DNA from: Escherichia phage phiSUSP1
DNA length: 64,000 nucleotides
Direction: 5' to 3' (one strand)
Sequence record: KT454805
In this document: one piece after another, positions 37,963 to 59,884 of the stretch
Layout of the letters: the number at the start of each line of letters is the position of its first letter
Position numbering within the stretch: position 1 is the stretch's first letter
Notes under the pieces: generated by a model
Databases searched by the model: none
The model's input: the letters and a program-made list of their open reading frames with translations, nothing else
What the model was told of the DNA's origin: nothing
Translations under genes and position numbers: made by a program

Positions 37963-38155
37963 TTTCTGCACTAAGTGTTCTATTGAGATGTTTGGTAAAG
38001 ATACAGGAGACTTAAAAGGTCTCTTTACAAAAGCAGAGTTTGAGGCTGGTTCAGCAATGCCAGTAATCTGTGAAGGTTGTGGTGCTTCATGGGTAGACCA
38101 TGAAGGTAACCGAGTTAAACCCTCTGAAGACAACGAACGTTGGGAGCATTATTAA
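37955..38155 (+). CDS. small Zn-ribbon protein
   Basis: CTKCS...CEGCG. Confidence 0.35.
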   Translation: MADFCTKCSIEMFGKDTGDLKGLFTKAEFEAGSAMPVICEGCGASWVDHEGNRVKPSEDNERWEHY

Positions 38156-38156
38156 T

Positions 38157-38951
38157 ATGGGTATCGTAAAGATTATTAAAGGTGATATCTTTAAAGACTT
38201 TGATAATAAGAAGTTTGATATTATTGGTCACGGTTGTAACTGTATGAACTTAATGGGTGCAGGTATTGCAGCAACAATTGCTAAACGCTACCCAAAAGTT
38301 TATGAGACTGATGCTGAAGTTTATACCACAGTAGGTGGTCAAGACCATAAACCTAAGCATATAATGCTTGGCAATATCTCTGTAGCACGTTTTAAGCAGG
38401 GTCGAATTGCTAACCTTTACACTCAGATTATCACTGGTAAAGATGCACGATACAATGCTTTAGAAGCAGCTTTGCAGCGTCTTAACAATTACTGCAAAGT
38501 AAACCAGCTTAAGAAAGTTGGACTTCCTATGATTGGTGCAGGGATTGGTGGTCTTGACAGCATGGCTGTGCTGTCTATCATCAATCAGACCATGAAAGAT
38601 GTTGACGTTTATATGTATGTCTATGAAGATAAGATGTACAGTCAGTTGACTAGTCCGGTTACTGGTTGGGAAAACTTTAGTGAACCTCAATACTTTGATG
38701 GTGTTGCCGTGGTAGGCAAGGATAAAGTTACCCTCAAGGTGAAGCGTAATGGCAAGGTACACACTAGTTACCCTCCGGTTGAGAAGTACAATCGAAGTAA
38801 CGCTCAAGTTACCCACCCGTTACAAGGCCATTGTCACAGAGCCGTAACATTTGGTGATGATGCAAGTGTGTATATCTGTGCTGCTACAGAAGAGTTTGCA
38901 GAGGATTATACCACACATGAAAACGTTAACTATGTTGAAGCACATAACTAA
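38157..38951 (+). CDS. macrodomain protein (ADP-ribose binding/processing) with C-terminal extension
   Basis: IIKGDIF...DIIGHGCNCMNLMGAGIAATIAKRYP and GLPMIGAGIGGL resemble macro-domain Gly-rich ADPR-binding loops; GGGAG RBS before ATG 38157. Confidence 0.6.
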   Translation: MGIVKIIKGDIFKDFDNKKFDIIGHGCNCMNLMGAGIAATIAKRYPKVYETDAEVYTTVGGQDHKPKHIMLGNISVARFKQGRIANLYTQIITGKDARYNALEAALQRLNNYCKVNQLKKVGLPMIGAGIGGLDSMAVLSIINQTMKDVDVYMYVYEDKMYSQLTSPVTGWENFSEPQYFDGVAVVGKDKVTLKVKRNGKVHTSYPPVEKYNRSNAQVTHPLQGHCHRAVTFGDDASVYICAATEEFAEDYTTHENVNYVEAHN

Positions 38952-38975
38952 TAAGTTACCTAAATAGACATAGAC

Positions 38976-39023
38976 AAGCCCTCCAAAGTTTGAGTTTAAA
39001 ATCTCAGGTAAGGAGGGCTTTTT
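38976..39023 (+). terminator. rho-independent terminator (long hairpin)
   Basis: AGCCCTCC...GGAGGGCT followed by TTTTT after the macrodomain gene. Confidence 0.5.
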
Positions 39024-39205
39024 CATTTCAAATTTGTGCAGGTGAAATTGCATAGAACTCTGGACAGATTTCTTTAGCTGAACTCCAAAGAGAAAATTCA
39101 TTTCCAATTTGTGCAGGTCTAGACTCCAAAGGGCTTTTTCATTTTCAATCTGTGCAGATGCAGTTGGACTCCAAAGGGAAAATTCATTTTCAATTTGTGC
39201 AGGTA
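39015..39205 (+). repeat. four tandem degenerate ~45-bp repeats (promoter-like)
   Basis: 4 copies of ACTCCAAAGGG-(A/T)4-TTCATTTYCAATYTGTGCAGRT. Confidence 0.6.
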
Positions 39206-39375
39206 GGTAGCTATAGGAAGCAAGACCCACCACCCTCTTACTCCCCCTCCTCCCAAAAGTCAAGAGAAAAATTTGTAGAGAACTAAAAAATAATTCTTGA
39301 CTAGTTTTATGTTTTCTGTTAGTTGCGTACACGCGTTTCATTCACAACTTGCCAAAAATATTTTTAAAAATCTTG

Positions 39376-39404
39376 TTGACTCTATGAATCCAGTTTTGTA
39401 GTAT
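39376..39404 (+). promoter_or_regulatory. sigma70-like promoter
   Basis: TTGACT-N17-TAGTAT upstream of first array gene. Confidence 0.55.
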
Positions 39405-39455
39405 TTGCATCAACGGGCAAGCAAGCCCCAACAATCCTAAACTGGAGAATCTAAG

Positions 39456-39662
39456 ATGTTATATCAACGTGAATTAATGATTGTTGACAACAACAAAACA
39501 AAGAAACGCCGTTTTTATATGCTAATCTGCGACGTTTGGCAACGTATCTCAGAAAAGGATTTTGATAAATATGTTGATACGTCAATCAGGTCTGATTGTT
39601 ACTTGACAAATCACACAAGACAATTTACAAGACATACGGCAATTTATTACTATAACGTTTAA
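39456..39662 (+). CDS. small early-array protein
   Basis: preceded by conserved CAATCCTAAACTGGAGAATCTAAgATG cassette. Confidence 0.55.
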   Translation: MLYQRELMIVDNNKTKKRRFYMLICDVWQRISEKDFDKYVDTSIRSDCYLTNHTRQFTRHTAIYYYNV

Positions 39663-39674
39663 AAGGGCTTGACA

Positions 39675-39836
39675 ATGATTAAAGAAGGTTATGTAATAAA
39701 GTACAAAGGGCAAGACGGATACACAAAGTTGGGACGTGTTTTCTATCTCTATACTTCAGCGATGGGCAATGAGTGTATAGCCCTTACAAATGGCGACAAA
39801 ATAACCATGAAAGATTTTATAAAAATTATTTCATAA
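39675..39836 (+). CDS. possible 53-aa array protein
   Basis: ATG 39675 to TAA 39836 fills the gap between array genes; no conserved cassette. Confidence 0.3.
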   Translation: MIKEGYVIKYKGQDGYTKLGRVFYLYTSAMGNECIALTNGDKITMKDFIKIIS

Positions 39837-39841
39837 AGTGC

Positions 39842-39877
39842 TTTACATGGGGTTTAAAAGGTAGTATCTTAAGCCCC
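39842..39877 (+). promoter_or_regulatory. promoter-hairpin cassette (class A)
   Basis: TTTACA-N17-TATCTT with GGGG...CCCC stem. Confidence 0.5.
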
Positions 39878-39924
39878 AGATAAAGAGCTTTGCTAACCAA
39901 TAGTCCTAAACTGGAGAATCTAAA

Positions 39925-40305
39925 ATGAAATATCGTGCGCCTAAATTTATCAACAAAGAAAACTTTCGTGATGCTCTGGAAAAATCCATGAATGAGCAGT
40001 TCAAAGGTAAAATCATTGTTGTTCACGCTTACAATTTTAAGTATGATGTAAATGGTAACAAGATAAACCACTACACCGCTACAATGTTAGATGGTACACT
40101 CTCAGGAGAAAAGGCTATTATAAATGCACTGGCTGGACGTGGTAAAACGTTAATCCGTTGCGATAAGCGCCGCTATCAAGGAAGTGCTTATGGTTATGAG
40201 GATGCAATCTATCATCTTGATAACATGGGTTACAACGTGGTAAAAGCTGGAGTATCTCAAATGATTGGTAGTGATGGCTACGTAACAATCTTTGAAATTA
40301 ACTAA
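39925..40305 (+). CDS. small early-array protein
   Basis: conserved CCTAAACTGGAGAATCTAAAATG initiation cassette. Confidence 0.6.
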   Translation: MKYRAPKFINKENFRDALEKSMNEQFKGKIIVVHAYNFKYDVNGNKINHYTATMLDGTLSGEKAIINALAGRGKTLIRCDKRRYQGSAYGYEDAIYHLDNMGYNVVKAGVSQMIGSDGYVTIFEIN

Positions 40306-40313
40306 TAAAGTGC

Positions 40314-40349
40314 TTTACATGGGGTTTATAGTTCGATAGGATAAGCCCC
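40314..40349 (+). promoter_or_regulatory. promoter-hairpin cassette (class A)
   Basis: TTTACA-N17-TAGGAT with GGGG...CCCC stem. Confidence 0.5.
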
Positions 40350-40391
40350 AGATAAAGAACTTTATCACTAACCTAAACTGGAGTTTTAAAA

Positions 40392-40649
40392 ATGGCTACT
40401 ATCAAAAATATTGTAATTACTGCAAAGTCCCGTGATGACGCTCGCGCAACTGCTAAAAAATTAAATGGCAAAGTGGTTGACAACGGAAAAGAATCTGCTG
40501 TAAGATGGGGTGTAAAGACAGACAAGAAATTAACCCTTAAACATAGTTCTTACAACATGTTTAAAGGTGTGAAAACTATCGGTAACACTAATGTATTCAC
40601 AAAGCAAGGTTACAAAATGCACTTATCATTAACTGACAATTTAATCTGA
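40392..40649 (+). CDS. small early-array protein
   Basis: cassette variant CTAAACTGGAGTTTTAAAAATG. Confidence 0.55.
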   Translation: MATIKNIVITAKSRDDARATAKKLNGKVVDNGKESAVRWGVKTDKKLTLKHSSYNMFKGVKTIGNTNVFTKQGYKMHLSLTDNLI

Positions 40650-40657
40650 TAAAGTAC

Positions 40658-40693
40658 TTTACATGGGGTTTATAAGTTGTTAGTATAAGCCCC
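40658..40693 (+). promoter_or_regulatory. promoter-hairpin cassette (class A)
   Basis: TTTACA-N17-TAGTAT with GGGG...CCCC stem. Confidence 0.5.
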
Positions 40694-40740
40694 AGATAAA
40701 GAGCTATATTAACCAATAGTCCTAAACTGGAGATTCTAAA

Positions 40741-41253
40741 ATGAAAACCACTGATGCTATTTTTGAAGTTGTAAAAGAAAAATATACCATTATTTATGCA
40801 GCAGTTAATTTCTATGAGCCTTCCCATTGTGTGGATAACTGGCAATTTACTGATGAGCATAAAGGAGGGATTACAATCAAAGTTAAGAATGCAGAACGTA
40901 ACAGCTACAAATATGCAATCCCTACGCATTACCCACTTTCACAGCTTGCCAGTGACTACGCAAAACAGGGAAGGGATAACCCATCATTGGAAGCTTACAA
41001 GAGCTTACAGGATGAGCTAGAAAGGGATTTAGAAGCTAATAGTTATCTCTTGTATGCCTCAGTAATTGACGCTGAAGGGAACACGGTTTTAAATAGTTTT
41101 TCTCTTGCGTACTCTTTTGATTGGTGCTATCTTGACGGGGAAGATTTAGAGACACGTTTAGAAGAGGAAGTGTCGAACTCTGACGGGGAGACTGAAGTGA
41201 TGGAACGTTTAGAAGCCTTGAAAGATTCAGTTATGAATATCTTTAATATCTAA
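40741..41253 (+). CDS. small early-array protein (acidic)
   Basis: conserved initiation cassette. Confidence 0.6.
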   Translation: MKTTDAIFEVVKEKYTIIYAAVNFYEPSHCVDNWQFTDEHKGGITIKVKNAERNSYKYAIPTHYPLSQLASDYAKQGRDNPSLEAYKSLQDELERDLEANSYLLYASVIDAEGNTVLNSFSLAYSFDWCYLDGEDLETRLEEEVSNSDGETEVMERLEALKDSVMNIFNI

Positions 41254-41259
41254 AAGTGC

Positions 41260-41294
41260 TTTACATGGGGTTATCAAGTTGATAAGATAGCCCC
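41260..41294 (+). promoter_or_regulatory. promoter-hairpin cassette (class A)
   Basis: TTTACA-N17-TAAGAT with GGGG...CCCC stem. Confidence 0.5.
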
Positions 41295-41336
41295 AGATAA
41301 AGAGCTTTACCAACAATCCTAAACTGGAGAATCAAA

Positions 41337-41633
41337 ATGTTTATTTCCGCAAACGTTAGAACTAAATTAAGCCAACTATTAAACAACATTCAATTCATTG
41401 AATCTATGCGCCGTCAATCTGAAGCTGTAGAGTGGTATCATGGAAAGATTAACAAAAAAGAAGTAATAGTTTGTGTATGGAACTTTTGTAAAGAATACAA
41501 AAAGCCGTTGCTTCAGGTTGATATCTATGATAACACTAACAAATCATCAATTAAAACCACTAGAGATATGATTGATTCATACGAAATTAGTCACACTGGG
41601 AAACTATTTCACAAAGGTGTAAACAAATGTTAA
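41337..41633 (+). CDS. small early-array protein
   Basis: conserved initiation cassette. Confidence 0.6.
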   Translation: MFISANVRTKLSQLLNNIQFIESMRRQSEAVEWYHGKINKKEVIVCVWNFCKEYKKPLLQVDIYDNTNKSSIKTTRDMIDSYEISHTGKLFHKGVNKC

Positions 41634-41974
41634 TCACATATACAGCTATTTTTATCTCTATTGTGGCGCTCTATAAAGCCTTTAAAGCGCATCAGTTAGC
41701 TAATAAGGCAATCACAAGGGATTTAAAAATAAACCTTGTAAGGGGCTTTATAGAGCGTTTAAGCTTGGAACAATTGAAACGTTTAGAGATGAGCTTTCGA
41801 TTTAAAGCGGAGACATACAGAATTGACAACATTCTAGCAGGTGATTTTAAGCTAATTAGTGATTATGACATACTGTTAGAAGCAATTCAAGACATAAATT
41901 TAAAAGATTATTACATCGTAATAGCTCAAGAAATTAATAAAAAAGAGCTTGCAATGAAAAACCAAAACAAGTAA
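41627..41974 (+). CDS. small membrane protein
   Basis: N-terminal TM ITYTAIFISIVALY; start overlaps upstream stop. Confidence 0.45.
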   Translation: MLITYTAIFISIVALYKAFKAHQLANKAITRDLKINLVRGFIERLSLEQLKRLEMSFRFKAETYRIDNILAGDFKLISDYDILLEAIQDINLKDYYIVIAQEINKKELAMKNQNK

Positions 41975-42040
41975 AGTATTTATCAACGGGGAGGGAAAAC
42001 TCCCCCCACTAAGCAAAATTCCTAAACTGGAGAATCTAAA

Positions 42041-42313
42041 ATGTATACAACTAACAATGGTAATACCCTTAATGTAACTCTAAAGCACTATGTAGACGGT
42101 GTATTAAACTTTGAAGACTTGCAAGCGGAGCAACATTTATTAGATTGGCAAGTAGCAGGACTGCAAAAAACTGCTACGGGGTACGGTACAAAAATTCCTA
42201 CATCTTGGAAAGTACGCTATTTAGGAAAGTTACGAAGAATTTATCAAGATGTTTATAGCAATAGTGGTGTAAGTTACATTATTGTTAACGGTAAAAAGTT
42301 GTATTTAGTCTAA
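42041..42313 (+). CDS. small early-array protein
   Basis: conserved initiation cassette after GGGGAGGG...CCCCCC hairpin. Confidence 0.6.
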   Translation: MYTTNNGNTLNVTLKHYVDGVLNFEDLQAEQHLLDWQVAGLQKTATGYGTKIPTSWKVRYLGKLRRIYQDVYSNSGVSYIIVNGKKLYLV

Positions 42314-42321
42314 TAAATTGC

Positions 42322-42356
42322 TTTACATGGGGTTATCAGGTTGATAAGATAGCCCC
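42322..42356 (+). promoter_or_regulatory. promoter-hairpin cassette (class A)
   Basis: TTTACA-N17-TAAGAT with GGGG...CCCC stem. Confidence 0.5.
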
Positions 42357-42401
42357 AGATAAAGAGATTCATCTGACACTAACCTAAACTGGAGAATCAA
42401 A

Positions 42402-42809
42402 ATGACTACTATTAATCATAAAGAAGTTGCAATTCTGAAAGCACGTTTGACTATTAACCGTATCAACATTGTCACATCAGCAGCACCAGATGAAACATTG
42501 CATAATATTATTGGTAAAATTCAGGGTGTAGTAGTAGATGTAAAACAGATTAAAGAAGCTTTACAAGACGTAGCAGCGGGGGCTATAATTGACGGCGCAC
42601 AATATGAAATGCAGGAAATGCTTTCAAAATCTAGAGTAATGAATAAAGAATTAGACTTGAAAATGTTTCGATTTGCTGTTAAAGTATGGCTATGTGTTGA
42701 TTTTGATGCTAACTTTGCAATAGCTGATTTCTTTGCTACATGGTTACAGCGTAATTTACCATCAGAAAAATTTCGTGAAATTTGCGATGCAATTTATTCA
42801 GAAATTTGA
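42402..42809 (+). CDS. small early-array protein
   Basis: conserved initiation cassette. Confidence 0.6.
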   Translation: MTTINHKEVAILKARLTINRINIVTSAAPDETLHNIIGKIQGVVVDVKQIKEALQDVAAGAIIDGAQYEMQEMLSKSRVMNKELDLKMFRFAVKVWLCVDFDANFAIADFFATWLQRNLPSEKFREICDAIYSEI

Positions 42810-42893
42810 TTGACACTGCAAAAACATAGTAGTAAAGTACTCATCAACGGGGCAAGATAAAGCCCCAACAATCCTAAACTGGAGAATCTAAAA

Positions 42894-43142
42894 ATGTTTA
42901 ATATGCTGAATATCCCTGATACCTGCCGACTGTTAACACAACTTGAAAATCTTGGCAAGCCCTTTTTATATCATATGCCAGATAACACGGCAAAAACTTA
43001 CAGCTATATTGTGAATCGTTTCACGGCTTATGGTTCAAAATATGGTTACAATGTCAAGACTCAAAAAGTGACTTTGTTCACAAGTATTGAAGAGTTGCCG
43101 ACTGTTGCAGTTAAACTAATCTTTACAAAGAAAACTAAATAA
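42894..43142 (+). CDS. small early-array protein
   Basis: conserved initiation cassette (class B upstream hairpin). Confidence 0.6.
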   Translation: MFNMLNIPDTCRLLTQLENLGKPFLYHMPDNTAKTYSYIVNRFTAYGSKYGYNVKTQKVTLFTSIEELPTVAVKLIFTKKTK

Positions 43143-43147
43143 AGTCC

Positions 43148-43184
43148 TTTACATGGGGTTTATAGTTAGATAAGATAAGCCCCA
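43148..43184 (+). promoter_or_regulatory. promoter-hairpin cassette (class A)
   Basis: TTTACA-N17-TAAGAT with GGGG...CCCC stem. Confidence 0.5.
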
Positions 43185-43226
43185 GATAAAGAGCTTTACC
43201 AACAATCCTAAACTGGAGAATCTAAA

Positions 43227-43784
43227 ATGAAATGCTTTCATGGTACTACTCAAGAAAACTTTTTAAACCTTATCAATGGCGGTGAAAAACCATCAGGAGC
43301 TTGGAATTGCTCTGATATGGATGGATGTTTTTACGTGTATCCGGTTAATAAGTTCTATGATGTAGAAGACTTAGACGACGAACAAATCACTAGCGAGGGT
43401 ATTAGAAATGCACTTGATAGTGCAAGCATTACAGCAGCATATCAAATGAAATCACAAAAAATTGTCATCTTGGAACTTGACATTCCAGAGGAAGATTTAC
43501 AAGATGACTGGAGTTGTGAAAATATGAGCGACGTTGCAAGCTTTACAGAATACTTTGATAAAGAATGGATTAAAAAGATTTACACAACTGAATTTAACGG
43601 GATGTATGCACCTTTCTTTGTGCCTAACCTGAATAACAGGAATTTAGGATACATACCGGATGAGTTACGCAACATTGCAGCAATGATACAGCGTAGCGAT
43701 GAAATGAATAATGTGTATATTGATATCTTTGAAACTATGCAGACATACGTTTCAGAAACGTCTATAAGCGATTTAACAGCATAA
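43227..43784 (+). CDS. small early-array protein
   Basis: conserved initiation cassette. Confidence 0.6.
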   Translation: MKCFHGTTQENFLNLINGGEKPSGAWNCSDMDGCFYVYPVNKFYDVEDLDDEQITSEGIRNALDSASITAAYQMKSQKIVILELDIPEEDLQDDWSCENMSDVASFTEYFDKEWIKKIYTTEFNGMYAPFFVPNLNNRNLGYIPDELRNIAAMIQRSDEMNNVYIDIFETMQTYVSETSISDLTA

Positions 43785-43847
43785 ACTATAGAATCATACC
43801 AGATAACCATAAAAGCCCCGCATAGGGGCTTACAGGAGCTTTAAAAG

Positions 43848-44078
43848 ATGCTTACAACAATCTATCTTATCCTTTCCTTGTCTAATGGTGCTGAATGGAA
43901 CTTCAAAGGGCTTGAAGAGTTCACAGGAAGCAAGGAAAACGCCATTGCAGCTTGTCAGATAGCAAGACTTGACTATCCTGCCAGCGATGATATACAATGC
44001 TACTTCAAGACAGAAGATGAGGAATCAATCTATTTTGATAGTATAGATGGTCAATATGAGATTCTTATAGAAAAATAG
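43848..44078 (+). CDS. small early-array protein
   Basis: own AGGAG RBS after AGCCCCGCATAGGGGCT hairpin. Confidence 0.5.
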   Translation: MLTTIYLILSLSNGAEWNFKGLEEFTGSKENAIAACQIARLDYPASDDIQCYFKTEDEESIYFDSIDGQYEILIEK

Positions 44079-44088
44079 TTGACACTGA

Positions 44089-44117
44089 AAAACAAAACAA
44101 GTAAAGTACTCATCAAC
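44089..44117 (+). promoter_or_regulatory. sigma70-like promoter (class B cassette)
   Basis: TTGACA-N17-TAAAGT followed by CATCAACGGG...CCC hairpin and conserved initiation cassette. Confidence 0.45.
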
Positions 44118-44155
44118 GGGAAGCAATCCCACAATCCTAAACTGGAGAATCTAAA

Positions 44156-44377
44156 ATGTTGCAAATCTTGAATGTAAAAACCATTGATTTTAAAGCCTTA
44201 AATGTTCGCCGTACCTATTTACAACCATTCAATAATCCTGTTAGAATATCCAACGATGACGCTAAAAAGTTAATTGATGAGATTCTAGCTAATGGCGGTT
44301 ATCTGGCAAGCCATAACCAATATGATGATGAGGATGGAAGCCTGATAAATGAATTTACATATTATTACTACAAATAA
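44156..44377 (+). CDS. small early-array protein
   Basis: conserved initiation cassette. Confidence 0.6.
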   Translation: MLQILNVKTIDFKALNVRRTYLQPFNNPVRISNDDAKKLIDEILANGGYLASHNQYDDEDGSLINEFTYYYYK

Positions 44378-44389
44378 CTAATAAAGTGC

Positions 44390-44425
44390 TTTACATGGGG
44401 TTTAAAAGGTAGTATCTTAAGCCCC
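44390..44425 (+). promoter_or_regulatory. promoter-hairpin cassette (class A)
   Basis: TTTACA-N17-TATCTT; identical to the copy at 39842. Confidence 0.5.
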
Positions 44426-44469
44426 AGATAAAGAGCTTTACCAACAATCCTAAACTGGAGAATCTAAAA

Positions 44470-44811
44470 ATGGCATATGTAACAATTATCACTGATAAAG
44501 AAAATTCGTCTTGGTCAACTCAGGTTAGCGACAAAATGACTCCTATGCAGTGTCTCAAGTACTTTGAACAGTGGAATCGTGGAGAGGATGTTAGCCCCTT
44601 TCAAGTGATGCAAGTTGTACACGTTGACAATGACGGCAACAAAACAACCCTTAACACTGAATACTATGCAAGCCGTTTTGAAACTAGAGCGGAGACAATG
44701 AAGCAATTACGTGAGAAGGGTTATAGTCACATAGCGGGATTAATCTGGAATGACTTACTAAAACAGCAGCGTATGACATATGTTAAGCCAGAAAAAATCT
44801 TTATAAGCTAA
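44470..44811 (+). CDS. small early-array protein
   Basis: conserved initiation cassette. Confidence 0.6.
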   Translation: MAYVTIITDKENSSWSTQVSDKMTPMQCLKYFEQWNRGEDVSPFQVMQVVHVDNDGNKTTLNTEYYASRFETRAETMKQLREKGYSHIAGLIWNDLLKQQRMTYVKPEKIFIS

Positions 44812-44843
44812 TCAACAACTTATAAAATTCTTTGAAAAAACTG

Positions 44844-44872
44844 TTGACATTGCCCCTTGACAATAGTACATT
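44844..44872 (+). promoter_or_regulatory. sigma70-like promoter
   Basis: TTGACA-N17-TACATT (second TTGACA in spacer). Confidence 0.5.
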
Positions 44873-45008
44873 TGTTCGAGGGGGTTTATCTAAAAGGATT
44901 CACTTAAAAGATTCTTTATAGATAAGCCAAAAATTACTTGCAAGACTCTAAGCAATTCTGTATAGTTCTATTCAAGCGATAAAACAATCCTAAACTGGAG
45001 AATATAAG

Positions 45009-45536
45009 ATGAATAAGTTCAATGCAATTAACGCTATCCGCTCAAAAGATGTAATGAAAAAACCTGTAAAAGACACTTTCGAATTTACCCTTAAAAACAA
45101 GTTGTTTGCAGTTATCACAAAAGGGGAAGATAAAAAGTATTACATTCATCGCCCCAATCAGAAAACGGTAACCACTAACAACTTTATGCAAGCCGTGGCG
45201 GTCATTCTGCCAGATTATATGGCTATTGTCGCAGAGATTCACGAAATGGCTATAAAAGCAACTAAAAACGAGTTAAATCGTTACAAAATGGCTTATGAGC
45301 GCTCTATTAAGTCTCACAATCTTTTTATTGCAATTCATCATACAGGGATGTATGCTATGGGAACGGGTAACCAACAATCCCCGCTCTATGATGTAGAAAA
45401 CATCTTTACAAGTGACTACCCGACAACTAAATTTAAAATTACGTTAGGGGAAGCATTAACTAGAGGGATTAAGCTGTACGAACAATCTTTAAAAAACTTA
45501 GAAAATTCACTTGACGAAATCATCAGAACTCTATAA
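45009..45536 (+). CDS. small early-array protein
   Basis: cassette variant CAATCCTAAACTGGAGAATATAAGATG. Confidence 0.6.
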   Translation: MNKFNAINAIRSKDVMKKPVKDTFEFTLKNKLFAVITKGEDKKYYIHRPNQKTVTTNNFMQAVAVILPDYMAIVAEIHEMAIKATKNELNRYKMAYERSIKSHNLFIAIHHTGMYAMGTGNQQSPLYDVENIFTSDYPTTKFKITLGEALTRGIKLYEQSLKNLENSLDEIIRTL

Positions 45537-45597
45537 AGTACTCATCAACGGGGAGGGAATGACCTTCCCCCAACAATCCTAAACTGGAGACTAGAAA

Positions 45598-45861
45598 ATG
45601 AATAATCAAGAAATCACTATCATGTTACAGATTGGTACTGACAAAGAAGATATCCAACTTTGCAAACGTATCGAAAGTGATTGGTTTAATGGTGAAATCA
45701 TCGCGGAGTCTTATGAGGTAGTTGGATTCATGAATGGTGAAATCGTAAGCCATTTTGGTTTAACTAAATCTGAAGCAATTGTAAAGTATGACGTTTTATC
45801 TTGTGAGATTCTTACAAAATACAACGAAAAAAGACTTGCAACATACGCCGCAATGAATTAA
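45598..45861 (+). CDS. small early-array protein
   Basis: conserved cassette after GGGGAGGGAATGACCTTCCCCC hairpin. Confidence 0.6.
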   Translation: MNNQEITIMLQIGTDKEDIQLCKRIESDWFNGEIIAESYEVVGFMNGEIVSHFGLTKSEAIVKYDVLSCEILTKYNEKRLATYAAMN

Positions 45862-45924
45862 TATTACTTTCAACGGGGAGGGAGACTTCCCCACTAACCC
45901 AAAATCCTAAACTGGAGATTCAAA

Positions 45925-46176
45925 ATGGCTACTATCCGCGCAACTGTTAACAACTTCGGCTTCAACGTACTAGATGTTAAATTTGATATGGTTGGCACTG
46001 GTGATGCTTTCGGTATGGTTGAAATGTGTCTGAAGGCAACTATTCAGGACTATAACCCATCAGAACCATTCTGGAAGGAAACTAAACAGGAAGTCTTAAA
46101 AGATGGGGTAACGTCCTACTATTGGGGTGATTCTCTTATCACACTTTACTACCAAAAATTCGGTGTGATTAACTAA
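45925..46176 (+). CDS. small early-array protein
   Basis: conserved cassette after GGGGAGGGAGACTTCCCC hairpin. Confidence 0.6.
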   Translation: MATIRATVNNFGFNVLDVKFDMVGTGDAFGMVEMCLKATIQDYNPSEPFWKETKQEVLKDGVTSYYWGDSLITLYYQKFGVIN

Positions 46177-46217
46177 CAGGACGCCGCAACGGGGCAAATA
46201 GCCCCAGACACCTTTAC

Positions 46218-46240
46218 AGCCCCTTAAATGGGGCTTTTCT
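46218..46240 (+). terminator. rho-independent terminator
   Basis: AGCCCC-TTAAAT-GGGGCT followed by TTTTCT; ends plus-strand array. Confidence 0.6.
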
Positions 46241-47830
46241 ACGTCTATGAGATAGAACTCTATCGAATCCTATATACAGAACCCTTCCTAGAATCTTAGA
46301 GATTCATCTAACAAGTTAGACTCATACCAGACATTTAGAACAATAACTCTATAGCTTACTCTATATCTTCTTATCAAGTCAACTACAATATAAGCCCATA
46401 ACCCGAAAGGGAAGGGCAATCTCTAAAACGCTCTATAACGCTCTATACGGGCTTATCATCTCATCTTAAGCAATCATATTAATCCATTCTTAAAAGCCCT
46501 TTATAGAGCTTCCTAGAGCCTTAAAAGAATCTTATAAGGGAGTAAGCTTATAGGCTGGATAGAATCTTGTGAATAATTAAAAAGGGGCTTGATAGTTACT
46601 TAAAAGTATGTTATGGAGGTTTAAAAGAGCCTTAAAAGTAACGTAAAAGTTAGCCCCCTTTACATTCTCTTAACAAAATCTTAACAAATGCTACATAGTT
46701 ATGCTTATTAGAGACTTGTTAGGGTCTTGTTAAATCCTTGTTAGAGGTATGTTAAAAGCTTGTTAGACTCTTTGAAGTCCCTGTATAAGCCCCTAGAAAG
46801 GGCTATAAAGAGCTGTACAGGTAGTTGGGGTGTAGTTACTAGGGAGAAGCTTAGAAGAGGCTATATAGAGCTATACAGAGCTTTTAAGAGGGCTTTTAAG
46901 AGAATCACTAAGAAGGGGAAGGGAACTATAGACCAGAGATAGTGACCATGTTAATAGCTTGTTAAAAAGGTTTAGAACTTATTAGAGCCTTGTTAATTAT
47001 CTTAACAAAATAACTCTTAAGATTTAACTATTTAGCAACTTATAAGCAACTTGTTAGACTCTTGTAAGCAATGTTACAGACTTGTTAAACCCTTGTTAGT
47101 TATGTTAAGGGTCTGTTAAGAACTTTGAAGAGATGTTAAGAGCTTGAGAGAGTTGTTAAGTGATTGTTAATGATATTTTAAGATTTTGCAAAGGGGATGT
47201 TACAGGGCTGTTTAGGGCTACCAAGCAGATATACATCCTATGTAGATATTTTTGAGTTACTCTCAAGACCCTAAAAAATGACTTGACAGTTCTATTTTAT
47301 AAAAATTTATGAGTTTAGATATTTCTAAACGAAATACTAAAGAATTGCATAAATATCTATATAGTATTCTGTATAAAACAGGTAAATACAGGCTTATAAG
47401 ATACCTTGTTAACACCGTGTTAGACCTTGTAGGATAAGCCTTAGAAGGTGATACCTGTTTAGTTAGTTAAAACAGTCTATATAGAGGATTAGTAGAACCT
47501 AGTGAATACCCTATAGAGAGTCATATCGTTAACATAGAGATTAAGATGGGTATAGGGGCTTCTAAGGGGATAGGAAGAGATGGTTAAGGTGATTGTATAG
47601 GTTTAGAAGAGAGATGCTTAGAGGGCTATTTAGAAGGGTTATACAGAGAGCTATAGAGACTCACTGTTAAGGGACTAAGAGACTATATAGCACTATATAA
47701 CACTATATAACTATATAGAGAGTAAGATTAAGTAGGCTGTTAAGAAGGGTAGATATTTTATCACATGATATGGTGACCCAAGATGAACGGAGTGAATCTA
47801 AATTTTATAAAAATTATAAATTTCGTAAAT
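46241..47830. repeat. non-coding iteron-rich region
   Basis: no credible ORF; more than ten TTGTTA(A/G) copies plus ATGTTA/CTGTTA variants, often ~11 bp apart, and repeated CTATAnAGAG motifs. Confidence 0.7.
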
Positions 47831-47840
47831 TTTACTCAAT

Positions 47841-47862
47841 AAAAAGCCCCATTGAAGGGGCT
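47841..47862 (-). terminator. rho-independent terminator
   Basis: minus-strand reading AGCCCC-TTCAAT-GGGGC followed by TTTTT, just after stop of ORF 47871..48485. Confidence 0.6.
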
Positions 47863-47870
47863 GTATAGTT

Positions 47871-57848: not shown

Positions 57849-57925
57849 CTCCGTTTAGCTCAGTTTGGTAGAGTGCGCCGTTTGGGGCGGTGAGGTCGAA
57901 GGTTCAATCCCTTCAACGGAGACCA
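57849..57925 (+). tRNA. tRNA-Pro (anticodon TGG)
   Basis: acceptor CTCCGTT/AACGGAG, T-arm GGTTCAATCC, loop TTTGGGG; CCA encoded. Confidence 0.75.
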
Positions 57926-57932
57926 AATTAAT

Positions 57933-58010
57933 GTTCCAGTAGACAAATTGGTAAAGTCACCACACTTTCAATGTGGAGTTTTGAGGGTTCAAGTCCCTTC
58001 TGGAACGCCA
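57933..58010 (+). tRNA. tRNA-Glu (anticodon TTC)
   Basis: acceptor GTTCCAG/CTGGAAC, T-arm GAGGGTTCAAGTCCCTT, loop CTTTCAA. Confidence 0.75.
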
Positions 58011-58017
58011 AATTTGA

Positions 58018-58082
58018 CAGAAGACCAAGTACAGCAAATAACTTTACTTTTCGCGCATAGAAAACTTAAAAGTTTGGTCTGG
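58018..58082 (+). ncRNA. inverted-repeat-bounded inter-tRNA element E1
   Basis: CAGAAGACCAA...TTGGTCTGG, 7-bp closing stem AGACCAA/TTGGTCT. Confidence 0.4.
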
Positions 58083-58093
58083 TCATAAAAGTT

Positions 58094-58170
58094 CGCGGGT
58101 ATAGAGAAAGGGCGTCTCACATGTCTCATTAGCATGGTATCGGCAGGTTCGACTCCTGCACCCGCCTCCA
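58094..58170 (+). tRNA. tRNA-Met/Ile2 (anticodon CAT)
   Basis: T-arm GCAGGTTCGACTCCTGC, loop CTCATTA, 3' ACCCGCC-T-CCA; 5' boundary uncertain. Confidence 0.6.
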
Positions 58171-58176
58171 AATTTG

Positions 58177-58239
58177 CAGAAGACCGTTTACAGCAATCTC
58201 AAAAATTTTTATCGGAAAAAATGAAAAGATACGGTCTGG
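58177..58239 (+). ncRNA. inverted-repeat-bounded inter-tRNA element E2
   Basis: CAGAAGACCGT...ACGGTCTGG, 7-bp closing stem. Confidence 0.4.
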
Positions 58240-58252
58240 CAATACTAAACAT

Positions 58253-58329
58253 GGTGAGGAAGCACATAAGGCATGTGCGGTCGGCTGTTAACCGAATGGT
58301 ATAGGGTTCGAATCCCTAACTCACCGCCA
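58253..58329 (+). tRNA. tRNA-Asn (anticodon GTT)
   Basis: D-arm GCAC-ATAAGGCAT-GTGC, loop CTGTTAA, T-arm TAGGGTTCGAATCCCTA, CCA encoded. Confidence 0.75.
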
Positions 58330-58399
58330 AGATTTGGGAGAGAAGCGTAATGCTCACCGATTTGTAAGGTGTAAGTCCTTAGCCTGAATAGAATAAAAT

Positions 58400-58487
58400 G
58401 CGTCGTTATCCCGTAGATGGAAGCGGTGGTGACTGTAAATCACTTGTCATTATGACTCGGTAGGTTCGACTCCTTCACGGCGCACCA
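58400..58487 (+). tRNA. tRNA-Tyr (anticodon GTA), class II
   Basis: 88 nt with long variable arm; loop CTGTAAA; acceptor GCGTCGT/ACGGCGC. Confidence 0.7.
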
Positions 58488-58493
58488 AATAAA

Positions 58494-58571
58494 GGTTATG
58501 TAGTTTAATCTGGTTAAAATACCTCACTGTCACTGAGGAAGATGAGGGTTCAAATCCCTTCGTAACCGCCA
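58494..58571 (+). tRNA. tRNA-Asp (anticodon GTC)
   Basis: anticodon arm CCTCA-CTGTCAC-TGAGG; T-arm GAGGGTTCAAATCCCTT. Confidence 0.75.
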
Positions 58572-58632
58572 ATTTTGAGAGGGCTTTCTAGCCCCTCCCT
58601 TAAAGAGTTCTTACGAGTATTCTTTAAAGGAG

Positions 58633-58709
58633 CAGAAGACCAAATTCAGCAAGCCAACTTAAAAAATTTCAAGCCAATTTAATTTTGAAAAATTTAAAAC
58701 TTGGTCTGG
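58633..58709 (+). ncRNA. inverted-repeat-bounded inter-tRNA element E3
   Basis: CAGAAGACCAA...TTGGTCTGG closing stem. Confidence 0.4.
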
Positions 58710-58722
58710 CTCAACAAATTTA

Positions 58723-58849
58723 CAGAAGACCGTTTACAGCAAGTATAAAACAATCTATTTCTCTGGTAAAGAAAAGGAGAAGGTTCGATTCCTTCACACG
58801 TTACGGCGTGTTGGTGTAATGGTAGCACTTAAGATAAACAACGGTCTGG
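58723..58849 (+). ncRNA. structured element E4 with tRNA-like T-arm (Y-RNA-like candidate)
   Basis: closing stem AGACCGT/ACGGTCT; internal hairpins GAAGG-TTCGATT-CCTTC (T-arm-like), ACACG-TTACGG-CGTGT, GTGT-AATGGTA-GCAC (D-arm-like); no anticodon arm. Confidence 0.4.
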
Positions 58850-58998
58850 TAATCCTCTTTGCAGTGACTTATGGAGCTAAATGTCGTCCCATGAGTGCCG
58901 ATGAATTTCCTTAGCATGATTCTAGATTAGCTTAATAGGAAATGACTCTACAAACCCTTTAGCAAGGTTTGCGTAGGTTACTGCAAAGATGATTTAAT

Positions 58999-59074
58999 GG
59001 GGGTGTAGCAGAAAGGTGATGCGGCAGACTTTTAATCTGACAGGCGACGGGTTCGAATCCCTCCACTCCCACCA
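58999..59074 (+). tRNA. tRNA-Lys (anticodon TTT)
   Basis: acceptor GGGGGTG/CACTCCC, loop CTTTTAA, T-arm GACGGGTTCGAATCCC. Confidence 0.7.
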
Positions 59075-59078
59075 ATAT

Positions 59079-59155
59079 GGTTCAGTCGCAGATAAGGTAA
59101 TGCAAGGGTTTCATAAGCCCTATGAATGTGGGTTCGAATCCCATCTGAACCTCCA
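59079..59155 (+). tRNA. tRNA-Met/Ile2 (anticodon CAT), second copy
   Basis: acceptor GGTTCAG/CTGAACC, loop TTCATAA, T-arm GTGGGTTCGAATCCCAT. Confidence 0.7.
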
Positions 59156-59156
59156 A

Positions 59157-59232
59157 GCTGGTATAGTTAAGAAGGTTATAACACTCCCCTGATAAGGGAA
59201 CATCGGTGGTTCGATTCCACCTACCAGTACCA
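59157..59232 (+). tRNA. tRNA-Ile (anticodon GAT)
   Basis: loop CTGATAA, T-arm GGTGGTTCGATTCCACC, acceptor GCTGGTA/TACCAGT. Confidence 0.7.
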
Positions 59233-59247
59233 ATTTCAATAAAGTTG

Positions 59248-59276
59248 TTGACATGGAGATGTGACTACTTTATAGT
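59248..59276 (+). promoter_or_regulatory. sigma70-like promoter inside tRNA cluster
   Basis: TTGACA-N17-TATAGT. Confidence 0.6.
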
Positions 59277-59509
59277 AGCCTTAGTTTTCGTTAGCGTAGC
59301 GTCTATTTTGCAAACTTAAAAATAAATGCAAACGATAATGCTTTTCTGGCAGTAGCTTAATAGGCTAAACACCAGTGAGGTCTTCCAATTCCTCATCAAA
59401 GAATTTGGCGTACTCGCCCACGGTATGATTAATAAGGTGGGCAACATTCTAAAGGGTATCCCGTATGGGGCTTGGCTTAAATGCAATGAGTACCCTTTAA
59501 AATGTTAAT

Positions 59510-59586
59510 GCACCCTTAGTTCAATTGGATAGAGCAAGTGCCTTCTAAGCACTGAGTTACAGGTTCGAGTCCTGTAGGGTGTGCCA
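59510..59586 (+). tRNA. tRNA-Arg (anticodon TCT)
   Basis: anticodon arm AGTGC-CTTCTAA-GCACT, T-arm ACAGGTTCGAGTCCTGT. Confidence 0.75.
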
Positions 59587-59593
59587 GTTTAAT

Positions 59594-59715
59594 GGTCAAG
59601 ACAACACTAGTAAGCCATCTGGATACATGTTAACAGATGTACGAAAGTCGGAAAGTTGCTGAAGGTTAGCTACCTTCGAGAGTAAGTAGGTTCGACTCCT
59701 ACCTTGACTGCCAAA
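59594..59715 (+). ncRNA. atypical tRNA-like element (possible pseudogene or insertion-containing tRNA)
   Basis: perfect T-arm GTAGG-TTCGACT-CCTAC and 3' CTTGACT-G-CCA pairing with GGTCAAG ~120 nt upstream; no canonical D-arm. Confidence 0.3.
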
Positions 59716-59849
59716 TAGTTAGCAGATTACTTAGACGACCTTAGCGGGTCTCCGTGTTGATTCAGATGAGTCAACTTCATAAGGAGGTGGTCTGTATCTC
59801 ATGTTTTCCAGAACATGTAAATAATCTGAGAAGAGGCTTGACAGTGTTG

Positions 59850-59878: not shown

Positions 59879-59884
59879 GTTAAT

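Follow-up and report, generated by a model that had tools for sequence, protein, structure and literature searches.

The region at 39376-46245 of the window (the whole 64,000-nt stretch of DNA that was analysed) is very probably an array of self-contained early-gene expression modules with cassettes of the promoter-early stem-loop (PeSL) type. The source of the window is a Felix O1-like myovirus (Ounavirinae) near Mooglevirus, and the array represents a genuine and ancient version of an organisation known from T4-like phages. Seventeen plus-strand ORFs of 53-185 aa lie between 39456 and 46176 (Table 1). All 17 matched PHROG families over their full length, and 14 are preceded by an exact copy of a 12-nt core, CCTAAACTGGAG. 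A cassette is missing from three genes: ORF2 lies 6 nt after ORF1, ORF7 overlaps ORF6, and ORF12 has its own hairpin and AGGAG.

Table 1. Cassettes, ORFs and hairpins of the array in order of position. N17, 17-nt spacer; core, CCTAAACTGGAG; ΔG in kcal/mol.
Feature	Position	Strand	Description
Cassette 1, class B	39376..39455	+	-35 TTGACT 39376, N17, -10 TAGTAT 39399; predicted +1 ~39411; 5' stem-loop 39415-39429; core 39436-39447; ATG 39456
ORF1	39456..39662	+	68 aa, PHROG 5293 (unknown function)
ORF2	39675..39836	+	53 aa from ATG (55 aa from TTG at 39669), PHROG 14219; no cassette, close behind ORF1
Cassette 2, class A	39835..39924	+	three-tier hairpin 39835-39891 (ΔG -22.1, z -4.3) around -35 TTTACA 39842, N17, -10 TATCTT 39865; predicted +1 ~39877; core 39905-39916
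ORF3	39925..40305	+	126 aa, PHROG 4495
Cassette 3, class A	40307..40391	+	hairpin 40307-40363 (ΔG -21.7, z -5.1); TTTACA 40314, N17, TAGGAT 40337; core 40372-40383
ORF4	40392..40649	+	85 aa, PHROG 5089
Cassette 4, class A	40651..40740	+	hairpin 40651-40707 (ΔG -21.0, z -4.7); TTTACA 40658, N17, TAGTAT 40681; core 40721-40732
ORF5	40741..41253	+	170 aa, PHROG 4190; in 11/11 phages compared; orthologue of Felix O1 ORF16 (5-min transcript peak)
Cassette 5, class A	41253..41336	+	hairpin 41253-41308 (ΔG -24.4, z -6.5); TTTACA 41260, N17, TAAGAT 41283; core 41318-41329
ORF6	41337..41633	+	98 aa, PHROG 4401
ORF7	41627..41974	+	115 aa, PHROG 4375; 7-nt overlap with ORF6, no cassette of its own
Cassette 6, class B	41949..42040	+	-35 TTGCAA 41949 (within ORF7 3' end), N17, -10 TAAAGT 41972 (includes ORF7 stop); 5' stem-loop 41988-42007; core 42021-42032
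ORF8	42041..42313	+	90 aa, PHROG 3436; most conserved array gene; homologues also in Erwinia Felix O1-like phages and Vequintavirinae
Cassette 7, class A	42315..42401	+	hairpin 42315-42370 (ΔG -21.3, z -5.0); TTTACA 42322, N17, TAAGAT 42345; core 42383-42394
ORF9	42402..42809	+	135 aa, PHROG 4327
Cassette 8, class B	42810..42893	+	TTGACA 42810, N17, TAAAGT 42833; 5' stem-loop 42849-42866 (z -3.8); core 42873-42884
ORF10	42894..43142	+	82 aa, PHROG 9030
Cassette 9, class A	43141..43226	+	hairpin 43141-43197 (ΔG -21.6, z -5.0); TTTACA 43148, N17, TAAGAT 43171; core 43207-43218
ORF11	43227..43784	+	185 aa, PHROG 3303; predicted ADP-ribosyltransferase-like fold
Hairpin AAGCCCCGCATAGGGGCTT	43813..43831	+	between ORF11 and ORF12, followed by ORF12's own AGGAG Shine-Dalgarno; not a standard cassette
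ORF12	43848..44078	+	76 aa, PHROG 4640
Cassette 10, class B	44079..44155	+	TTGACA 44079, N17, TAAAGT 44102; 5' stem-loop 44118-44130; core 44136-44147
ORF13	44156..44377	+	73 aa, PHROG 10118; in only 3/11 phages compared
Cassette 11, class A	44383..44469	+	hairpin 44383-44439 (ΔG -22.1, z -4.9); TTTACA 44390, N17, TATCTT 44413; core 44449-44460
ORF14	44470..44811	+	113 aa, PHROG 4318; class A, B or D upstream depending on phage
Cassette 12, class D (no hairpin)	44938..45008	+	TTGCAA 44938, N17, TATAGT 44961; short leader; core 44989-45000
ORF15	45009..45536	+	175 aa, PHROG 4725
Cassette 13, class B	45511..45597	+	TTGACG 45511 (within ORF15), N17, TAAAGT 45534; 5' stem-loop 45550-45571 (z -3.1); core 45578-45589
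ORF16	45598..45861	+	87 aa, PHROG 7022
Cassette 14, class B	45836..45924	+	TTGCAA 45836 (within ORF16), N17, TAATAT 45859; 5' stem-loop 45875-45892; core 45906-45917
ORF17	45925..46176	+	83 aa, PHROG 4559
Array end, cassette-type hairpin GGGGCAAATAGCCCC	46191-46205	+	no gene behind
Array end, canonical terminator AGCCCCTTAAATGGGGCT + TTTTCT	46218-46241	+	counterpart of Felix O1 t23

The 14 exact copies of the core are all on the plus strand and all within 39436-45917, against a chance expectation of 0.27; none of 100 shuffles reached 14. No decaying copies were detected, matches with two or three mismatches totalling 54 against 52.6 expected. Alignment of the copies from about 20 related loci in three genera showed the core to be exact in 196 of 198, with the ATG 6-10 nt downstream in 171 of 173 unique copies (7-9 nt in 163). 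The motif is multi-copy in Felix O1-like genomes only. The initial annotation had described a near-invariant 27-nt initiation string before 14 of the 17 ORFs; the repeat stands, but its invariance is confined to the 12-nt core, since the 8 nt that separate it from the ATG are highly conserved but show some variation. The core holds the GGAG Shine-Dalgarno, and a standard ribosome-binding site alone does not account for the eight invariant nucleotides upstream of it across genera. It is predicted to fold as UCC[UAAACU]GGA, a stem of 3-4 bp at about -2.7 kcal/mol. A Felix O1 variant of the leader, CCTTAAACTAGGAG, has one extra U-A pair and an unchanged loop; the variants numbered 267 (V1) and 107 (V2), with 0 of either single-insertion form. 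At the sequence level, this compensated variant suggests a small stem-loop containing the Shine-Dalgarno. In Erwinia phages the leader reads CCUU[variable]AAGG.

Upstream of the core, all 14 cassettes in the window carry a predicted sigma70-type promoter with exact N17 spacing. Seven are class A (CTTTACATGGGG ... CCCCAGATAAAG), with the promoter inside a three-tier hairpin of about 20 bp, and six are class B (TCATCAACGGG-type), in which a GC stem-loop starts about 4 nt past the predicted +1. The single class D copy, upstream of ORF15, lacks a hairpin. Among 63 unique class A cassettes from the related loci, TTTACA is present in 62, and the spacing to TAnnnT is N17 in 57 and N18 in the other 6, with none at N15, 16, 19 or 20. 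The same -35/N17/-10 arrangement occurs in 104 unique non-A cassettes, in 61 of which the hairpin begins 4 nt past the predicted +1, every +1 being inferred from the -10 position. The earlier assignment of class A cassettes to seven genes and class B cassettes to others, and its reading of class A as a promoter embedded in a hairpin, are thus borne out by the sequence.

The class A hairpins in the window have predicted energies of -21 to -24 kcal/mol (z -4.3 to -6.5), and RNAalifold recovered the same structure. Positions of the inner stem alternate among T-A, A-T and C-G, yet pairing is retained in 61-63 of 63 cassettes at positions 6-7 and in 57 of 63 at position 8, a level reached by 0 of 2000 shuffles. 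Two positions are mostly U.G wobbles, alternating with C-G or U-A, and the stem of an Erwinia phage is compensated as GGTG/CACC. Because of this covariation, and because the U.G pairs form on the sense strand only, sequence comparison identifies the class A hairpin as a selected RNA structure; the cassette copies share descent, so the covariation counts represent few independent events. The cassette hairpins lack a U-tract and are therefore not canonical intrinsic terminators.

Array gene content differs between related phages, and identity between relatives is mosaic, gene by gene. Forty-two of 56 homology-block ends fell within ATG-33..+9, the pre-start repeat, although BLAST block ends are naturally pulled toward the edges of conserved repeats. 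Compared with an approximately 95% identical S. Kent phage, three indels have their junctions within shared stretches of 13-29 nt, and the class of cassette upstream of one and the same gene can be A, B or D depending on the phage. As judged from these alignments, relatives swapped, lost or gained genes at exactly the repeated pieces, in line with the proposal that the array is recombination-prone. The genes had also been proposed to be early. In published Felix O1 RT-PCR data, the orthologues ORF16, 20, 21 and 22 peak at 5 min (four of seven tested), which agrees with this; ORF17, 19 and 23 peak at 25 min and not at 5 min, and do not.

In the model we propose, host sigma70 RNA polymerase would transcribe each module from a promoter at its start (-35, exactly 17 nt, TAnnnT). 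In class B, the stem-loop about 4 nt past the predicted transcript start would form a 5'-terminal hairpin, expected to make the mRNA less prone to 5'-end-dependent decay. The hairpin of class A, like that of class C in relatives, spans the promoter and so would exist only in read-through RNA from the upstream gene. There it may cap the 3' end of that gene, whether by attenuating transcription, blocking exonucleases or providing a processing site, and may also insulate neighbouring modules. In phage T7, RNase III processes irregular hairpins, likewise of about 20 bp and with internal loops, that lie between successive early genes of a read-through transcript. Class A hairpins resemble these sites in shape and placement, and if cleaved they would provide the upstream message with a 3' hairpin, but they overlap the promoter, which the T7 sites do not. 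After the hairpin, a G-poor leader would lead to the invariant element 7-9 nt before the ATG, supplying every cargo gene with an identical translation-initiation region. With 14 directly repeated cassettes of 25-90 nt, the array could lose, gain or exchange genes by homologous recombination between them without breaking expression, which would keep it hyperplastic.

In its sequence, the array design corresponds to PeSL cassettes of the T4 type joined to a leader that resembles the start-associated sequences (SAS) of mycobacteriophages. The likeness to T4-type cassettes, already drawn in the initial annotation, holds feature by feature against the published PeSL definition (Arbiol et al. 2010, PMC2839356; Comeau et al. 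2014, PMC4122927). Both have a sigma70-like early promoter and a GGGG...CCCC stem-loop, which sits in the -35/-10 spacer, covers the -10 or follows it closely, and then the Shine-Dalgarno; both accompany small ORFans in hyperplastic regions, and indel or replacement junctions between related phages fall inside the cassettes. PeSLs are carried by T4-like phages rather than by Ounavirinae; they differ from the long three-tier class A hairpin (~20 bp, two internal loops) and lack the invariant 12-nt leader element. Experiments on PeSLs demonstrated that they act as promoters and terminators and form mini-circles; the array promoters are predicted from sequence. Cronobacter phage CR9 (Vequintavirinae) has similar promoter-hairpin cassettes without the invariant leader. 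The SAS/ESAS elements of cluster K mycobacteriophages (Pope et al. 2011, PMC3203893) are short asymmetric repeats of 13 nt, compared with 12 nt here, with 11-19 copies per genome against about 14. Like the core, they contain a Shine-Dalgarno core a few nucleotides before the ATG, in one orientation, ahead of non-structural genes with large intergenic gaps; they also share conserved positions beyond 16S pairing and an upstream inverted repeat at about half of the copies. Their sequence, GGGATAGGAGCCC, is unrelated, and the ESAS arms gave no support for RNA pairing, whereas the upstream inverted repeats here covary as RNA. SAS/ESAS phages are temperate siphoviruses of a Gram-positive-type host; the array belongs to a virulent myovirus of E. 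coli, Salmonella, Shigella and Citrobacter, genetically a much more tractable system. Both array repeats were mentioned before without analysis (Felix O1 2010, Mordin 2015), and the Mordin genome announcement already likened the leader to start-associated sequences.

The early genes under RegB/RegA control in phage T4 share a GGAG Shine-Dalgarno, and RegB cuts GGAG in early mRNAs. Shared GGAG sequences may offer a common post-transcriptional handle in the array as in T4, although the T4 targets have no invariant 12-mer. It is possible, if somewhat doubtful, that the main role of the invariant leader is that of an RNA operator for the whole regulon, with its Shine-Dalgarno-containing stem-loop recognised by a trans-acting factor. 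This could be a phage translational repressor or endoribonuclease, in the manner of RegA or RegB, or a host factor, and would act as a common switch for the translation or decay of all array mRNAs, adding to the cassette model without replacing it. Such an operator is consistent with a 12-mer that is exact in those 196 of 198 copies, and free of decayed copies, while coding sequences are 50-90% identical across genera, with a loop (UAAACU) that is invariant in enteric phages, and with the heterogeneous Shine-Dalgarno sequences of the phage's other genes. Complementarity to 16S rRNA does not account for the part before the Shine-Dalgarno (71% of shuffles equal it), and the different, lineage-specific leader of like design in distant Erwinia phages is expected if leader and factor co-evolve. 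The compensated base-pair insertion between V1 and V2 points the same way but is a single evolutionary event. The predicted stem is only 3-4 bp long, and annotation covering half of the KPS64 genome names no protein similar to RegA or RegB.

We consider action at the DNA level unlikely, with the 12-mer and/or the TAAAGnnCTTTA palindromes serving as operator or 'stoperator'-like sites, or the GGGG...CCCC repeats as cruciform or recombinase targets. The TAAAGnnCTTTA palindromes flank class A cassettes, where a phage DNA-binding protein (e.g. of Cro/C1-type HTH) could shut off early transcription, and relatives encode two small HTH proteins (KPS64 gp28 and gp49). In addition, TAAAGTACTTTA is a perfect palindrome over the -35 (class A) or -10 (class B), every core lies downstream of a promoter in one orientation, and the GGGG...CCCC motif was speculated to be a possible protein target (Arbiol et al., PMC2839356). 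However, the two wobble positions are mainly T.G, a mismatch in DNA or antisense, and the left half of the upstream palindrome co-varies with the right half of the downstream one, a pattern expected of a hairpin but not of independent operators. The fixed 7-9-nt distance from core to ATG and the Shine-Dalgarno within the core also argue for a role at the RNA or ribosome level. It is very unlikely that the cassettes are ordinary promoters and ribosome-binding sites made uniform by recent duplication and gene conversion in a fast-recombining region. Recombination between copies is clear and could homogenise them, and identical blocks of cassette sequence recur within a genome. But the core, -35, N17 geometry and hairpin are retained in Mooglevirus, Suspvirus and Felixounavirus, and class A persists in Erwinia Kolesnikvirus too, where stem changes are compensated and array proteins share only ~50% identity. 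Conservation is also sharply bounded, with 12 invariant nucleotides beside variable flanks instead of whole-cassette identity, and the stems covary rather than being identical.

Anti-defence or host-shutoff roles, suggested for such products in the initial annotation, are hypothetical for this array. Among its products, that of ORF11 provides the sole functional lead, a predicted ADP-ribosyltransferase-like fold. The invariant residues of its family, PHROG 3303, are H5-G6-T7, Y36 and E83.

All 17 small ORFs claimed by the initial annotation were recovered on the + strand and encode products of 53-185 aa (see table). Fourteen of them are preceded by an invariant 12-nt leader element containing a GGAG Shine-Dalgarno (SD) motif, here called the core (CCTAAACTGGAG), which is found in 14 exact copies in the window, all on the + strand and all within the array, compared to 0.27 expected. 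The cassettes that end in these cores comprise seven of class A (CTTTACATGGGG ... CCCCAGATAAAG), in which the promoter lies inside a hairpin, six of class B, in which a stem-loop follows the predicted +1, and one promoter without a hairpin, before ORF15; the earlier tally of seven class-A cassettes is confirmed. Cassette-free genes are ORF2, which starts at most 6 nt after the preceding gene, ORF7, which overlaps the preceding gene, and ORF12, which has a private hairpin and SD. Full-length matches to PHROG families of unknown function were obtained for 17/17 array products and a Pfam search with the same 17 returned no match, so the products, already described as unrecognisable, are real, conserved phage ORFans.

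In each of the 14 window cassettes a -35-like hexamer is separated from a TAnnnT hexamer by exactly 17 nt. The class-A promoter reads TTTACA-N17-TA(A/G/T)nnT. In class B the -35 is TTGACA, TTGCAA, TTGACG or TTGACT and the -10 is TAAAGT, TAGTAT or TAATAT, and a GC stem-loop starts 4 nt past the +1 predicted from the -10. Most cassette copies hold the upstream TAA stop inside TAAAGT(G/A)C and the GGAG SD and ATG at their 3' end; in three class-B cases the preceding ORF contains the -35 in its 3' end and takes its stop codon from the -10 TAAAGT. The comparison set comprised the cassettes of the window, of ten relatives in GenBank and of eight loci in IMG/VR. TTTACA was present in 62 of the 63 unique class-A cassettes of this set, and its spacing to TAnnnT was N17 in 57 and N18 in 6, with N15, 16, 19 and 20 in none; the spacing is constant although loop sequence and length vary. 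Nearly all of the 104 unique non-A cassettes have a -35/N17/-10 arrangement, and the hairpin begins exactly 4 nt after the predicted +1 in 61 of them. The relatives also carry a class C, TTGACA-[AGGGGCTTCAAAGCCCC]-TACTAT, whose hairpin fills the -35/-10 spacer. Spacing that stays fixed whatever the hairpin sequence gives the putative promoters, including the TTTACA-N17 element as initially read, their strongest in-silico support. A generic promoter scan gave weak enrichment (50 versus 35 expected), and so the promoter case rests on the comparative geometry; no transcriptomics of Felix O1-like phages was found in the literature searched. Two other promoter readings were ruled out. A T4 MotA box at GTGCTTTA would lie at the wrong distance to the -10, and its G/T positions vary (TGCTTTA, TACTTTA, TCCTTTA). 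TAAAGA, 3' of class A, as a second -10 has no -35 and lacks the final T.

The class-A hairpin is built of three tiers, ~20 bp in all: outer AAAGU/GCUUU, middle CUUUA/UAAAG and inner (U)GGGGUUUAU/AUAAGCCCC(A). Its folding energy is -21 to -24.4 kcal/mol (z -4.3 to -6.5), and RNAalifold returned the same structure for 21 diverse copies. Inner-stem position 6 of the 63 class-A cassettes shows T-A (44) or A-T (19), position 7 A-T (42) or T-A (19) and position 8 A-T (14), T-A (23) or C-G (16), and one outer-stem position has 39 G-C and 15 T-A pairs; the copies share ancestry, and these counts represent few independent events. The observed level of pairing was reached by 0/2000 shuffles. Two further stem positions are mostly T.G (48/63 and 53/63) and otherwise C-G or T-A, a pairing available only as U.G in sense-strand RNA. 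A compensated stem, GGTG...CACC, was found in the more distant Erwinia phage phiEa104, and class-B stem-loops always keep their pairing across diverse sequences. At the level of sequence, the range of pair types seen at more than one position, together with the sense-only wobbles, favours an RNA hairpin over a DNA site as the target of selection, in line with the hairpin first proposed. Since the predicted class-A start lies within the 3' arm, the complete hairpin would form only in read-through RNA from the upstream gene. Unlike intrinsic terminators, the cassette hairpins have no U-tract: the sequence directly 3' of them is AGAUAAAG or AACAAUCC, and a scan for a hairpin plus U-tract detected no canonical terminator at the cassettes. 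This combination was found only in the element at the array end.

The core was exact in 196/198 copies across the compared loci. The ATG follows it by 6-10 nt in 171 of 173 unique copies (7-9 nt in 163), with an intervening A-W-T-C-W-A-A-A pattern, and conservation of the leader drops sharply upstream of position -1. In the window, 12-mer matches with two or three mismatches occur at chance level (54 in total versus 52.6 expected), indicating that copies are either perfect or absent; the SDs of other window genes are heterogeneous. The core is multi-copy only in Felix O1-like (enterobacterial) genomes (225 phage records), with 13-14 copies per genome in Mooglevirus and 1-9 in Felixounavirus.

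Several explanations for the leader were weighed. An antisense partner was ruled out, as the window has no reverse-strand copy of the core and none above chance even at three mismatches. Translational enhancement through 16S complementarity was also ruled out: GGAG is the sole part of the core that pairs with the anti-SD, and E. coli 16S rRNA binds the pre-SD part with at best -7.2 kcal/mol, a value that 71% of shuffles equalled. An inverted repeat formed by the first promoter's spacer and the core lacks conservation among the relatives and was set aside. RNAfold repeatedly paired UCC to GGA around the loop UAAACU. A second core variant, V2 (CCTTAAACTAGGAG), carried by Felix O1 and its close relatives, has an extra 5' T and 3' A; compared to the usual form, V1, this adds one U-A pair and leaves the hexaloop the same (V1 UCC[UAAACU]GGA, V2 UCCU[UAAACU]AGGA). 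We counted 267 copies of V1, 107 of V2 and no single-insertion forms in 59 Felix O1-like loci, and in IMG/VR single-insertion forms were only isolated matches in unrelated contigs. The V2 insertions are 7 nt apart, so that the comparison represents one compensated event plus one lineage comparison. The leader of the Erwinia relative reads CCUU[AUA/ACA]AAGG or CCU[UAAAC/UAAAG/UAAAU]AGG; its arms are conserved and its loop varies. From these comparisons a small stem-loop embedding the SD is plausible, with about even chances, and its recognition by a trans-acting factor is a possibility that we hold only tentatively. It is similarly doubtful, though conceivable, that the leader is a dedicated RNA operator on every early-array mRNA, which a phage or host factor would read to turn the whole early regulon on or off in concert, via translation or mRNA cleavage. 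No regulator of the RegA/RegB type was present in the annotation of half the KPS64 genome.

The array had been proposed to be modular and prone to recombination, and comparison with ten relatives bore this out. Of 56 internal homology-block ends, 42 fall within ATG-33 to +9, in the pre-start repeat, and most of the remainder lie at class-A or class-B cassette starts; neighbouring blocks overlap by 20-30 nt within the repeat. S.Kent 1-2-1 and the window form a gene-by-gene mosaic, in which ORF3-8 are 99% identical and ORF9 70%, and S.Kent 1-2-1 lacks ORF1-2, ORF10-13 and ORF16. Each of its junctions falls in sequence that the cassettes on both sides share, 20 nt in one case, 29 nt in another and a class-B hairpin's 5' arm in the third (13-29 nt overall). 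Gene content varies between phages, with ORF13 present in 3/11 and ORF2, 3, 10-12 and 16 variably present. Cassette types are swapped as well, where class D denotes a cassette without a hairpin: depending on the phage, ORF14 and ORF15 each follow an A, B or D cassette, ORF3, 11 and 13 an A or B cassette, and ORF17 a B or C cassette. In the ORF14-ORF15 spacer the block GATTCACTTAAAAGATTCTTTATAGATAAGC is kept in all relatives and is followed in Mordin, KPS64, Silverhawkium and mistaenkt by a gene for a ~46-aa putative membrane protein and a class-B cassette, neither of which is in the window. Mordin has two class-A cassettes in tandem at ~2868-2933 with no intervening gene, and KPS64 has a duplicated class-B cassette plus core at 7871 and 7998, 127 nt apart. 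Both arrangements are probably traces left by deletion or duplication through the cassettes.

By definition, the promoter-early stem-loop (PeSL) cassettes of T4-like phages combine an upstream stop, a sigma70-like early promoter, a GGGG...CCCC stem-loop (five positions relative to the promoter), an SD and ATG, an association with ORFans and recombination between copies (PMC2839356, PMC4122927). The T4-type likeness suggested earlier extends to every sequence-level feature of these cassettes: an extent from an upstream stop codon in an AT-rich stretch through the SD/ATG, a sigma70-like early promoter in an intergenic cassette, and a setting of ORFans in a hyperplastic region with junctions in the cassettes. 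The stem-loop is placed over the spacer and -10 in class A, between -35 and -10 in class C and just past +1 in class B. Termination or attenuation of upstream transcription by the stem-loop, and cassette-bounded mini-circles in infected cells, are further features of PeSLs. PeSLs occur in T4-like (Tevenvirinae-type) genomes, whereas the present cassettes are in Ounavirinae. A third phage group is represented by Cronobacter phage CR9 (Vequintavirinae), whose locus 1-7162 is a small-gene array with nearly all genes preceded by TTGAC-GGGGCC...GGCCCC-ATAAT and a CA-rich leader. These cassettes are PeSL-like, with the hairpin in the promoter spacer, and have no invariant leader, suggesting that the promoter-hairpin design is widespread and that the invariant leader is the Ounavirinae-specific part.

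All positional properties of the leader resemble those of the start-associated sequences (SAS) of mycobacteriophages (PMC3203893), though the sequences differ. Both are short, asymmetric, SD-containing repeats in one orientation just before the ATG of non-structural genes, with conserved positions beyond those pairing with the 16S rRNA 3' end. The SAS consensus is GGGATAGGAGCCC and is restricted to cluster K, in contrast to the core, which is restricted to enterobacterial Felix O1-like phages; the function of cluster K SAS was still open in 2025. The repeats themselves are already on record. For Felix O1, Whichard et al. (2010) gave the class-A repeat (57 bp) and a TTGACA repeat (39 bp) merely as direct repeats, and Guan et al. 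(2015) described a 26-bp SAS-like repeat ahead of 8 Mordin genes, which is labelled repeat_region in the Mordin GenBank record. In these two papers and further Felix O1-like genome papers we found no reading as promoter-hairpin cassettes or recombination linkers. What is new is the occurrence of PeSL-type cassettes outside T4-like phages together with an SAS-like leader.

PDB sequence searches with ORF5, ORF11 and ORF15 gave no matches, and a poor structure model of ORF5 (pLDDT 63) had no meaningful fold match. ORF11 is a candidate ADP-ribosyltransferase (ART) by predicted fold; ARTs are marked by that fold together with an H-Y-E (or R-S-E) signature for NAD binding. A macro-domain gene lies a few kb from ORF11, and the two products could form an ADP-ribosylation eraser/writer pair. 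Early expression of the array had been proposed at the outset. In published RT-PCR of Felix O1, ORF16, 20, 21 and 22, the orthologues of window ORF5, 9, 14 and 15, peak at 5 min, whereas ORF17, 19 and 23, the orthologues of ORF6, 8 and 17, peak at 25 min.

Overall, the finding is real and its first interpretation is supported. 'Plug-and-play' cassettes of the PeSL type are not limited to T4-like phages: in the Felix O1 group, and apparently in Vequintavirinae too, they order the variable early region. This supports accessory-gene shuffling by a general mechanism in virulent phages. The invariant leader is an E. coli/Salmonella counterpart of the mycobacteriophage SAS, whose function has been open since 2011; if the RNA-operator reading were true, this unexplained element would have a Gram-negative, genetically tractable counterpart. 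Felix O1-like phages, including BASEL collection members, grow on K-12 strains, making the leader easy to manipulate. The cassettes delimit 14 putatively independently expressed ORFan modules beside the physical genome end, and these, including the predicted ADP-ribosyltransferase ORF11, are defined candidates for host-takeover or anti-defence screens. As compact natural promoter/5'UTR parts, the cassettes could serve phage engineering. The main value lies in having the SAS phenomenon in a tractable phage and a delimited early ORFan set for functional screening.

Table. Features of the array and its surroundings (window coordinates)
Feature	Coordinates	Strand	Remarks
Macro-domain gene	38100-38951		directly upstream of array; Pfam Macro, E 1.2e-7; PHROG 'phosphatase'
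173-aa ORF	38820-39341	-	overlaps the ~43-nt direct repeats
Four direct copies of a ~43-nt unit (...ACTCCAAAGGGnnTTTTCATTTTCAATTTGTGCAGGT)	39001-39204		between macro-gene terminator and first array promoter
17 array ORFs	39456-46176	+	53-185 aa
Extra promoter-like site, TTGACA-N17-TACATT	44844-44872		in long ORF14-ORF15 spacer (44812-44937)
Canonical terminator at array end	46218-46241		after one further cassette-type hairpin; counterpart of Felix O1 t23
Terminal direct repeat annotated in HP1	46653-~47220		mapped position; inside ORF-free 46250-47870
tRNA cluster, 25 genes	57849-63578	+	ARAGORN; 23 pass Rfam threshold

Sequence comparison places the array and its neighbourhood with the Felix O1-like myoviruses (subfamily Ounavirinae), at 80-95% identity overall. 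The array is 80-90% identical to the Mooglevirus phages Mordin, Michonne, Sf13, KPS64, ESh22 and HP1, and the adjoining rIIA/NAD-salvage block is ~95% identical to Salmonella phage S.Kent 1-2-1 and Citrobacter phage HP1. The large tRNA cluster is typical of Felix O1-like phages; a gathering-threshold Rfam scan of the window returned 23 tRNA matches only, none in the array. The 173-aa minus-strand ORF may be spurious. The last array gene ends ~480 bp before the terminal repeat mapped in relatives, and the mistaenkt record stops at window ~46650. Together with the HP1 repeat, this record end places a physical genome end ~480 bp past the array, so that the window crosses a terminus. The ORF-free stretch is rich in the short words CTTGTTA(A/G) and CTATA(G/T)AG. 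GU169904.1 ('Staphylococcus phage SA1', 147 kb) also contains array sequence of the Felix O1 type, with a homologue of ORF8 at 81% identity, and looks like a chimeric or contaminated record. Array proteins are additionally filed under E. coli assemblies, one of them on an 88,055-bp 'plasmid', and these entries probably represent a Felix O1-like phage genome assembled together with its host.
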